A DNA stretch of 64,000 nucleotides from Escherichia coli (GTDB taxonomy: Bacteria > Pseudomonadota > Gammaproteobacteria > Enterobacterales > Enterobacteriaceae): assembly GCF_003334815.1 (NCBI RefSeq), contig NZ_QOWO01000009.1. One strand, 5' to 3'. The position numbers and the translations under genes were made by a program. Under the pieces are notes generated by a model. That model was given only the letters and a program-made list of their open reading frames with translations. It was not told where the DNA came from and made no database searches. Below, piece by piece: positions 31,620 through 33,973 of the stretch (positions are counted from its first letter, which is position 1; every line of letters begins with the position of its first letter).

Positions 31620-32516
31620 ATGACAGACACACAGTATATTGGCCGCTTCGCCCCCTCTCCTTCCGGCGAGCTTCATTTTGGCTCTCTGATCGCCGCGCTC
31701 GGCAGCTATTTGCAGGCTCGCGCCCGGCAAGGTCGCTGGCTGGTACGCATAGAAGATATCGACCCGCCTCGTGAAGTTCCCGGTGCCGCAGAAACTATCC
31801 TGCGCCAGCTGGAACATTACGGTCTGCACTGGGACGGCGATGTTCTCTGGCAATCGCAACGTCACGACGCCTATCGTGAAGCACTCGCCTGGTTACATGA
31901 ACAAGGACTAAGTTATTACTGCACCTGTACGCGTGCGCGTATTCAAAGCATTGGCGGTATTTACGACGGTCATTGCCGGGTGTTGCATCATGGACCAGAC
32001 AACGCCGCAGTGCGTATCCGCCAGCAGCATCCGGTCACGCAATTTACTGACCAGCTGCGCGGCATTATTCACGCCGACGAAAAACTGGCACGGGAAGATT
32101 TTATCATTCATCGCCGTGATGGGTTGTTCGCCTACAACCTGGCTGTTGTGGTTGATGATCATTTCCAGGGCGTTACAGAAATAGTGCGTGGGGCTGATCT
32201 GATTGAACCAACAGTAAGGCAAATCTCGCTGTACCAGCTTTTTGGCTGGAAAGTGCCAGATTACATTCATCTGCCGCTGGCGCTTAATCCACAAGGCGCT
32301 AAACTTTCCAAGCAGAATCATGCGCCTGCGTTGCCGAAAGGCGATCCACGCCCGGTACTAATCGCGGCACTTCAATTTCTGGGGCAGCAGGCAGAAGCAC
32401 ACTGGCAGGATTTCAGCGTCGAGCAAATCCTTCAGTCAGCCGTCAAAAACTGGCGGCTTACCGCCGTGCCCGAGTCGGCAATTGTAAATTCAACATTCTC
32501 AAATGCGTCATGCTGA
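31620..32516 (+). CDS. gluQ: glutamyl-queuosine tRNA(Asp) synthetase (GluRS paralog)
   Basis: Track ORF 31590..32516 (308 aa) starts at an ATG inside the dksA terminator hairpin; called from the downstream ATG at 31620 ([23 protein letters not shown], 298 aa); class I aaRS HIGH-like motif. Confidence 0.75.
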
Positions 32517-32575
32517 GCTATGATTAGCCGCTATTTTTTTGTCCTGAATGATGTTTGACACTACCGAGGTGTACT

Positions 32576-33973
32576 ATTTTTACCCGAGTCGCTAATTTTT
32601 GCCGCAAGGTGCTAAGCCGCGAGGAAAGCGAGGCTGAACAGGCAGTCGCCCGTCCACAGGTGACGGTGATCCCGCGTGAGCAGCATGCTATTTCCCGCAA
32701 AGATATCAGTGAAAATGCCCTGAAGGTAATGTACAGGCTCAATAAAGCGGGATACGAAGCCTGGCTGGTTGGCGGCGGCGTGCGCGACCTGTTACTTGGC
32801 AAAAAGCCGAAAGATTTTGACGTAACCACTAACGCCACGCCTGAGCAGGTGCGCAAACTGTTCCGTAACTGCCGCCTGGTGGGTCGCCGTTTCCGTCTGG
32901 CTCATGTAATGTTTGGCCCGGAGATTATCGAAGTTGCGACCTTCCGTGGACACCACGAAGGTAACGTCAGCGACCGCACGACCTCCCAACGCGGGCAAAA
33001 CGGCATGTTGCTGCGCGACAACATTTTCGGCTCCATCGAAGAAGACGCCCAGCGCCGCGATTTCACTATCAACAGCCTGTATTACAGCGTAGCGGATTTT
33101 ACCGTCCGTGATTACGTTGGCGGCATGAAGGATCTGAAGGACGGCGTTATCCGTCTGATTGGTAACCCGGAAACGCGCTACCGTGAAGATCCGGTACGTA
33201 TGCTGCGCGCGGTACGTTTTGCCGCCAAATTGGGTATGCGCATCAGCCCGGAAACCGCAGAACCGATCCCTCGCCTCGCTACCCTGCTGAACGATATCCC
33301 ACCGGCACGCCTGTTTGAAGAATCGCTTAAACTGCTACAAGCGGGCTACGGTTACGAAACCTATAAGCTGTTGTGTGAATATCATCTGTTCCAGCCGCTG
33401 TTCCCGACCATTACCCGCTACTTCACGGAAAATGGCGACAGCCCGATGGAGCGGATCATTGAACAGGTGCTGAAGAATACCGATACGCGTATCCATAACG
33501 ATATGCGCGTGAACCCGGCGTTCCTGTTTGCCGCCATGTTCTGGTACCCACTGCTGGAGACGGCACAGAAGATCGCCCAGGAAAGCGGCCTGACCTATCA
33601 CGACGCTTTCGCGCTGGCGATGAACGACGTGCTGGACGAAGCCTGCCGTTCACTGGCAATCCCGAAACGTCTGACGACATTAACCCGCGATATCTGGCAG
33701 TTGCAGTTGCGTATGTCCCGTCGTCAGGGTAAACGCGCATGGAAACTGCTGGAGCATCCTAAGTTCCGTGCGGCTTATGACCTGTTGGCCTTGCGAGCTG
33801 AAGTTGAGCGTAACGCTGAACTGCAGCGTCTGGTGAAATGGTGGGGTGAGTTCCAGGTTTCCGCGCCACCAGACCAAAAAGGGATGCTCAACGAGCTGGA
33901 TGAAGAACCGTCACCGCGTCGTCGTACTCGTCGTCCACGCAAACGCGCACCACGTCGTGAGGGTACCGCATGA
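32576..33973 (+). CDS. pcnB: poly(A) polymerase I
   Basis: Track ORF 32555..33973 begins at a TTG; the annotated 465-aa protein ([22 protein letters not shown]) corresponds to initiation at the in-frame ATT codon at 32576, the non-canonical AUU start reported for pcnB. Confidence 0.8.

Follow-up and report, generated by a model that had tools for sequence, protein, structure and literature searches.

Translation of Escherichia coli pcnB, the gene for poly(A) polymerase I (PAP I), almost certainly (probability about 0.95) starts at an AUU codon at positions 32576-32578 of the window (the whole stretch of 64,000 nucleotides that was analysed; all features described here lie on its + strand), a start that caps the synthesis of a protein toxic in excess. 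The reading frame, the Shine-Dalgarno (SD) sequence, the conservation among species, the point where the coding signature sets in and the invariance within the E. coli population all fall on this ATT. The AUU start and its role are already known and curated: pcnB is a textbook exception, shown experimentally in 2002 (Binns and Masters, 2002, Mol Microbiol 44:1287, as cited in PMC2939334, PMC3561954, bioRxiv 10.1101/063800, PMC5499595, PMC4245954 and PMC4447247). Our gene, codon and proposed role are those of that study, with no difference in substance. The initial annotation of this DNA had proposed the ATT as initiator and was silent on its being established; the SD and comparative analyses presented below agree independently with the published start.

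The gene order around position 32,500, read from the list of open reading frames and from the RefSeq annotation of the identical MG1655 region, is dksA-gluQRS-pcnB-folK, as in the enterobacterial neighbourhood of this gene. K-12 MG1655 is 100% identical to the window between 32300 and 33000, a region found in 5425 of 5426 complete E. coli genomes. Upstream, the sequence itself shows the pcnB frame closed by an in-frame TGA (32549-32551), and the first canonical start of the open reading frame that follows (32555-33973) is a TTG at 32555-32557, within a TTGACA hexamer (32555-32560). The ATT, read as fMet, lies in the same frame seven codons 3' of the TTG; the eight codons from 32576 (ATT TTT ACC CGA GTC GCT AAT TTT) give (M)FTRVANF, exactly where the initial annotation had placed them. 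The coding sequence runs from there to 33973 (465 codons plus TGA; RefSeq WP_010723084.1). Its product scores 997.1 bits against the NCBIfam PcnB equivalog profile NF008634 (cut-off 702), with residues 1-464 aligned to profile positions 1-468 of 469, and 523 against TIGR01942 (cut-off 305.65). At its 3' end the pcnB TGA overlaps the folK ATG (ATGA, 33970-33973, from the list of open reading frames and the RefSeq coordinates), an arrangement that suggests translational coupling. The initial annotation had also held that the frame has no ATG or GTG near the N-terminus, which is true of the stretch from the upstream stop to the ATT but overlooks a GTG at 32609-32611 (codon 12, Val12, 33 nt 3' of the ATT, in the context ...RK-V-LS). 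Further in-frame GTGs stand at codons 29 and 31 (32660 and 32666), and the first in-frame ATG, a candidate start for a short isoform, is codon 52 (32729-32731). Codon 29 (32660-32662) is GTG (Val) in E. coli as against ATG (Met) in 73 of 80 related species, and is thus another canonical in-frame codon open to gene callers, as in one of the distant homologs described below (L092).

The ribosome-binding site separates the ATT from every other candidate. We scored the duplex between the 3' end of 16S rRNA and the region upstream of all in-frame canonical and near-cognate start codons between 32552 and 32780. The best value belonged to the ATT (-9.8 kcal/mol), which is preceded by GAGGTG (GAGGUG in the mRNA) at 32566-32571 and a 4-nt spacer, TACT (32572-32575). 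The TTG at 32555 (-2.3 kcal/mol) and the GTG at 32609 (-1.6 kcal/mol) have no SD sequence, and the ATG at 32729, with GAAGG before it, reaches -4.0 kcal/mol at a spacing of zero. An SD at functional spacing before an in-frame AUU is a trait of genes of the infC/pcnB type, and it is present at 32576. The pcnB ribosome-binding site has been called "poor" (PMC3561954), whereas by the duplex energy and spacing computed here the site looks good.

An in-frame ATT is uninformative by itself, as it is an ordinary isoleucine codon. This one is lifted above chance by its SD, by conservation in every species compared, by a switch from non-coding to coding variation at the codon and by the match across E. 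coli populations. We examined one genome per species at 80 Enterobacteriaceae loci with 86-100% protein identity, spanning Escherichia, Citrobacter, Salmonella, Klebsiella, Enterobacter, Kosakonia and others. The aligned pcnB start was ATT in all 80, GAGGTG at -10 to -5 was equally invariant (80/80), and the 4-nt spacer between them differed in sequence among species but never in length. Alignment columns upstream of -11 varied at all three codon positions. Between the ATT and GTG-12, by contrast with these columns, the five variable sites were all third-position and synonymous (ACC/ACT, GCT/GCA, TTT/TTC, CGC/CGT/CGA, AAG/AAA). The coding pattern of substitution begins, then, at the AUU, with power limited by the near invariance of the block. 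Nor is a fixed ATT simply how start codons behave in these genomes, because the folK start flips between ATG (38) and GTG (30) in the same set; the gluQRS start, our other control, was ATG in 67 of 69. The non-canonical codon is kept among orthologs while canonical alternatives upstream are not: 43 of the 80 species have no ATG, GTG or TTG in the interval from the upstream in-frame stop to the ATT, and in three species the stop is as close as -15. The downstream GTG-12 is kept as well. Within the species, the exact 32-mer centred on the ATT (32561-32592) was matched in 5421 of 5426 complete E. coli genomes, and the same 32-mer with any of 12 substituted codons (ATG, GTG, TTG, CTG, ATC, ATA, CTT, GTT, TTT, AAT, ACT or AGT) had no E. 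coli match.

Farther afield, a search of 1.84 billion representative proteins led to nine homologs for which DNA was obtained. Three of them carry the same arrangement of SD and start codon: GAGGTG-tcct-ATT in L082 (62% identity), where ATT is the recorded start in the NCBI assembly record; GAGGTG-tacc-ATT in L083 (67%), called from an upstream TTG; and GAGGTG-tatt-ATT in L085 (62%), called from a GTG at codon 13. In L084 (55%) an ATT occupies the aligned position and the called start is an ATG about 80 nt upstream. In L092 (54%), the conserved N-terminal motif IRRVIELCKKVI follows an in-frame TAG and is accessible solely from ATC or CTG, and the called start is an ATG at about codon 29. This last locus (Logan SRR20241965 contig, around 400-500) retains gluQRS-pcnB-folK synteny and suggests a different non-canonical start codon in its lineage. 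The other four are read as called, from GTG in L086 (48%), from ATG with an SD in L093 (53%) and L094 (51%), and from ATG in L087 (44%). The non-canonical start therefore reaches relatives at about 54-67% identity. Because the more distant homologs use ATG or GTG, we take non-canonical initiation to characterise the enterobacterial clade together with some near relatives, and not PcnB proteins as a whole. The relatives seen here fit the probable AUU starts in many Proteobacteria that PMC3561954 attributes to Binns and Masters. At one of these loci (L083; CP043324.1, 1201-2698, in a 5.0-Mb genome) pcnB is called as two pieces of 316 and 150 aa, which points to a frameshift, a pseudogene or a sequencing error.

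The upstream region offers a further point of reference for the start. A sigma-70-like promoter, TTCTCA-17-TATGAT (32496-32524), overlaps the end of gluQRS; a consensus scan found this 1 site against 0.4 expected, and its motif 'gctatgattagccgct' recurs in many species. It is a candidate for pB, which PMC2939334 describes as the major pcnB promoter. The same paper gives the -10 sequence of the sigma-S promoter pS2, TAAACT, which we locate at 32300-32305, and start sites that, counted from the ATT, lie at -263 to -265, corresponding to 32311-32313 in the window. The published -10 box and start sites fit the window only with 32576 as +1. In many species the TTGACA hexamer at 32555-32560 is retained in part, as TTGACA or CTGACA; we considered it as a -35 box and rejected it, as no -10 hexamer stood at 16-18 nt by eye and none was returned by the scan. 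In the urinary isolate E. coli YD786 (NZ_CP013112.1) an IS4-like transposase of the ISVsa5 family (189-1397 of the locus, L091) is inserted between gluQRS and pcnB, at about window positions 32500-32508. The insertion sits in the pcnB promoter region and leaves the coding sequence from the ATT intact; expression of PAP I in this strain may be altered as a result.

Among other possible starts, the one that survives best is compatible with the AUU: in addition to the AUU protein, a 414-aa isoform could be made from the ATG at 32729 on transcripts of the sigma-S promoter pS1 under particular conditions. This promoter is active in vitro and, under special conditions, in vivo, two bands react with anti-PAP I antibodies on western blots, and a shorter ATG-52 isoform has been raised as a possibility (PMC2939334). 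The GAAGG 5' of the codon and the synonymous constraint on codons 36-49, just upstream of it, point the same way. We nevertheless consider the isoform improbable, as the SD duplex at this ATG is weak and badly spaced, the codon-52 ATG is missing from many species, in which the next in-frame start is elsewhere, and the authors of PMC2939334 themselves call the short isoform unproven. By our mapping to the coordinate, the ATG at 32729 is probably the start that Liu and Parkinson proposed in 1989. The region with the second-lowest synonymous diversity of pcnB (about 0.19-0.22) is that of codons 36-49 (32681-32722), and it may correspond to the internal promoter pS1 or to the SD region discussed in PMC2939334.

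The GTG at codon 12 is a realistic rival start in its own right. Initiation there would yield a 454-aa protein (MLSREESE...) and make the conserved block upstream a non-coding leader. The codon is kept in 80 of 80 species, at least 1000 contigs carry the 454-aa form, which an older O157:H7 annotation also names, and the near absence of variation in the block before the GTG leaves dN/dS little power. Yet the five sites that do vary in codons 3-11 are all synonymous third positions; codons 3-11 are therefore translated and GTG-12 is not the sole start. Moreover, the GTG lacks an SD, the PcnB equivalog profile takes in residues 1-11, and the literature places the start at the ATT. Distant homologs that start from a canonical ATG (L093 and L094) also begin at an equivalent basic amphipathic motif, such as MLIIKKLFKKIF. 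We regard a start at GTG-12 in place of the AUU as very improbable; judged from the alignment, its conservation in every species leaves room for minor initiation that may occur there alongside the AUU. Finally, although the TTG at 32555 is the first canonical start in the open frame, would be taken in by the predicted transcript from the TATGAT promoter and underlies a 472-aa form deposited on at least 1000 contigs, we dismiss the view that it is the initiator and the ATT an ordinary internal Ile codon, since the TTG has no SD, the seven codons between it and the ATT show non-synonymous variation and variation at all positions, and the ATT is the start according to RefSeq, UniProt and the literature. 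The E. coli TTG is a lineage-specific accident, because a canonical upstream start is absent from 43 of 80 species and an in-frame stop lies at -15 to -24 in some, as near as 15 nt.

The AUU has left its mark on the databases. By exact-sequence look-up in a public protein collection we counted four N-termini for the pcnB locus: the 465-aa form from ATT (UniProt PCNB_ECOLI), the 472-aa form from TTG and the 454-aa form from GTG-12, each on at least 1000 contigs, and the 414-aa form from ATG-52 on 39 contigs. The RefSeq/PGAP coding sequence started at the ATT in 3 of 3 records mapped, and a fourth, from E. coli YD786, was consistent with the ATT save for a 1-nt offset. The prediction of the initial annotation that automated callers would misplace the start is thus borne out by the TTG, GTG-12 and ATG-52 forms that have been deposited, but not by RefSeq/PGAP and UniProt, which use the ATT. 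Ab initio callers misplaced the start in distant orthologs too. The practical weight of the AUU lies here: with proteins of 465, 472, 454 and 414 aa in circulation, non-curated annotation gives the wrong N-terminus for PAP I.

The conservation around the AUU goes deeper than the protein sequence. Across the 80 species, some 40 nt from -11 to +28 (32565-32604), which include the SD, the start codon and codons 2-9, are near-invariant, synonymous sites included. For codons 1-9 (the eight given above followed by TGC), normalised codon entropy is 0.033, whereas the gene as a whole averages 0.56; none of the other nine-codon windows, 347 in all, is as low. A rare arginine codon, CGA, is fixed at codon 4 in 80 of 80 species, and other 4- and 6-fold degenerate sites are frozen too. 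The first windows of the neighbouring genes were ordinary in the same genomes, at 0.70 for gluQRS (rank 90 of 170) and 0.60 for folK (rank 24 of 87). The synonymous invariance of codons 2-9 is possibly the sole item of this analysis that goes beyond the literature consulted. It may reflect a stringent context requirement of the weak start codon, or a binding site. Tentatively, and on sequence grounds, the block could be a cis-element that tunes AUU initiation, either as a factor-binding site or as a hairpin that sequesters the SD and holds the AUU in its loop, a proposal that we think unlikely. RNAalifold did predict a small hairpin (CG.GGUG/UACC.CG) with the AUU in the loop and a second, G-U-rich hairpin. 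Neither contained compensatory double changes, and both are retained mostly through sequence invariance; the first is impossible in L085 and weak in L083. The E. coli leader, for its part, folds less well than its shuffles (z = +1.39), 193 of 200 of which were at least as good. We therefore do not regard RNA structure as the established cause of the frozen block, although it may still be involved. A search of 32300-32800 for known RNA families (Rfam) returned none at E <= 1, and the consensus scan placed no antisense promoter in the conserved block.

The mechanism by which the AUU would limit PAP I follows from the decoding of the codon. With a strong SD (GAGGUG) 4 nt 5' of the AUU, initiator tRNA would decode it as fMet to produce the 465-aa MFTRVANF... 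protein. Initiation is expected to be inefficient because the AUU pairs imperfectly with the anticodon of the initiator and initiation factor IF3 discriminates against it. According to the literature, inefficient initiation at the AUU holds the enzyme to a few dozen molecules in each cell and so avoids the toxicity of excess polyadenylation. Discrimination by IF3 against AUU is established for infC (PMC5499595), the gene for IF3 itself, and it is by analogy with infC that we infer IF3 sensitivity of the pcnB mRNA. In the literature linking IF3 and pcnB we found generic mentions only and no report of IF3 dependence, and the literature on ribosome profiling of initiation sites held nothing specific on pcnB that we could find. 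The two genes, which are the only confirmed cases of AUU starts in E. coli (bioRxiv 10.1101/063800; PMC5499595; PMC4245954; PMC4447247), have in common a non-canonical initiator which their orthologs retain and which limits expression. They differ in that the AUU of infC closes a negative feedback loop, its product discriminating against the very codon, whereas any IF3 dependence of pcnB would be feed-forward because PAP I, unlike IF3, is no initiation factor. The two start codons also lie in unrelated sequence contexts. A further parallel is ebpA of Enterococcus faecalis, in which a rare ATT start dampens expression of a protein whose excess is costly; this gene too was mis-annotated, at a downstream ATG (PMC4447247). 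Its product is a pilus tip adhesin, and both protein and organism are unrelated to pcnB and E. coli.

The statement in the initial annotation that a weak start holds PAP I low and that its overproduction is toxic can be found in the literature (PMC3561954; PMC2939334). The AUU, together with the ribosome-binding site, limits PAP I synthesis (PMC3561954), and the limiting of a toxic PAP I by the weak AUU start is likewise described in PMC2939334. The AUU start is the accepted explanation for the low level of PAP I, about 30-50 molecules per cell, and overproduction or deregulation of the enzyme is lethal through polyadenylation of tRNA (PMC3561954). To this, the comparative data add that, across the Enterobacteriaceae, selection fixes the start codon along with its SD, the length of the spacer and the first nine codons. 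If the frozen block is indeed a cis-element, it would add a layer of regulated control of PAP I synthesis to this constitutive limit.
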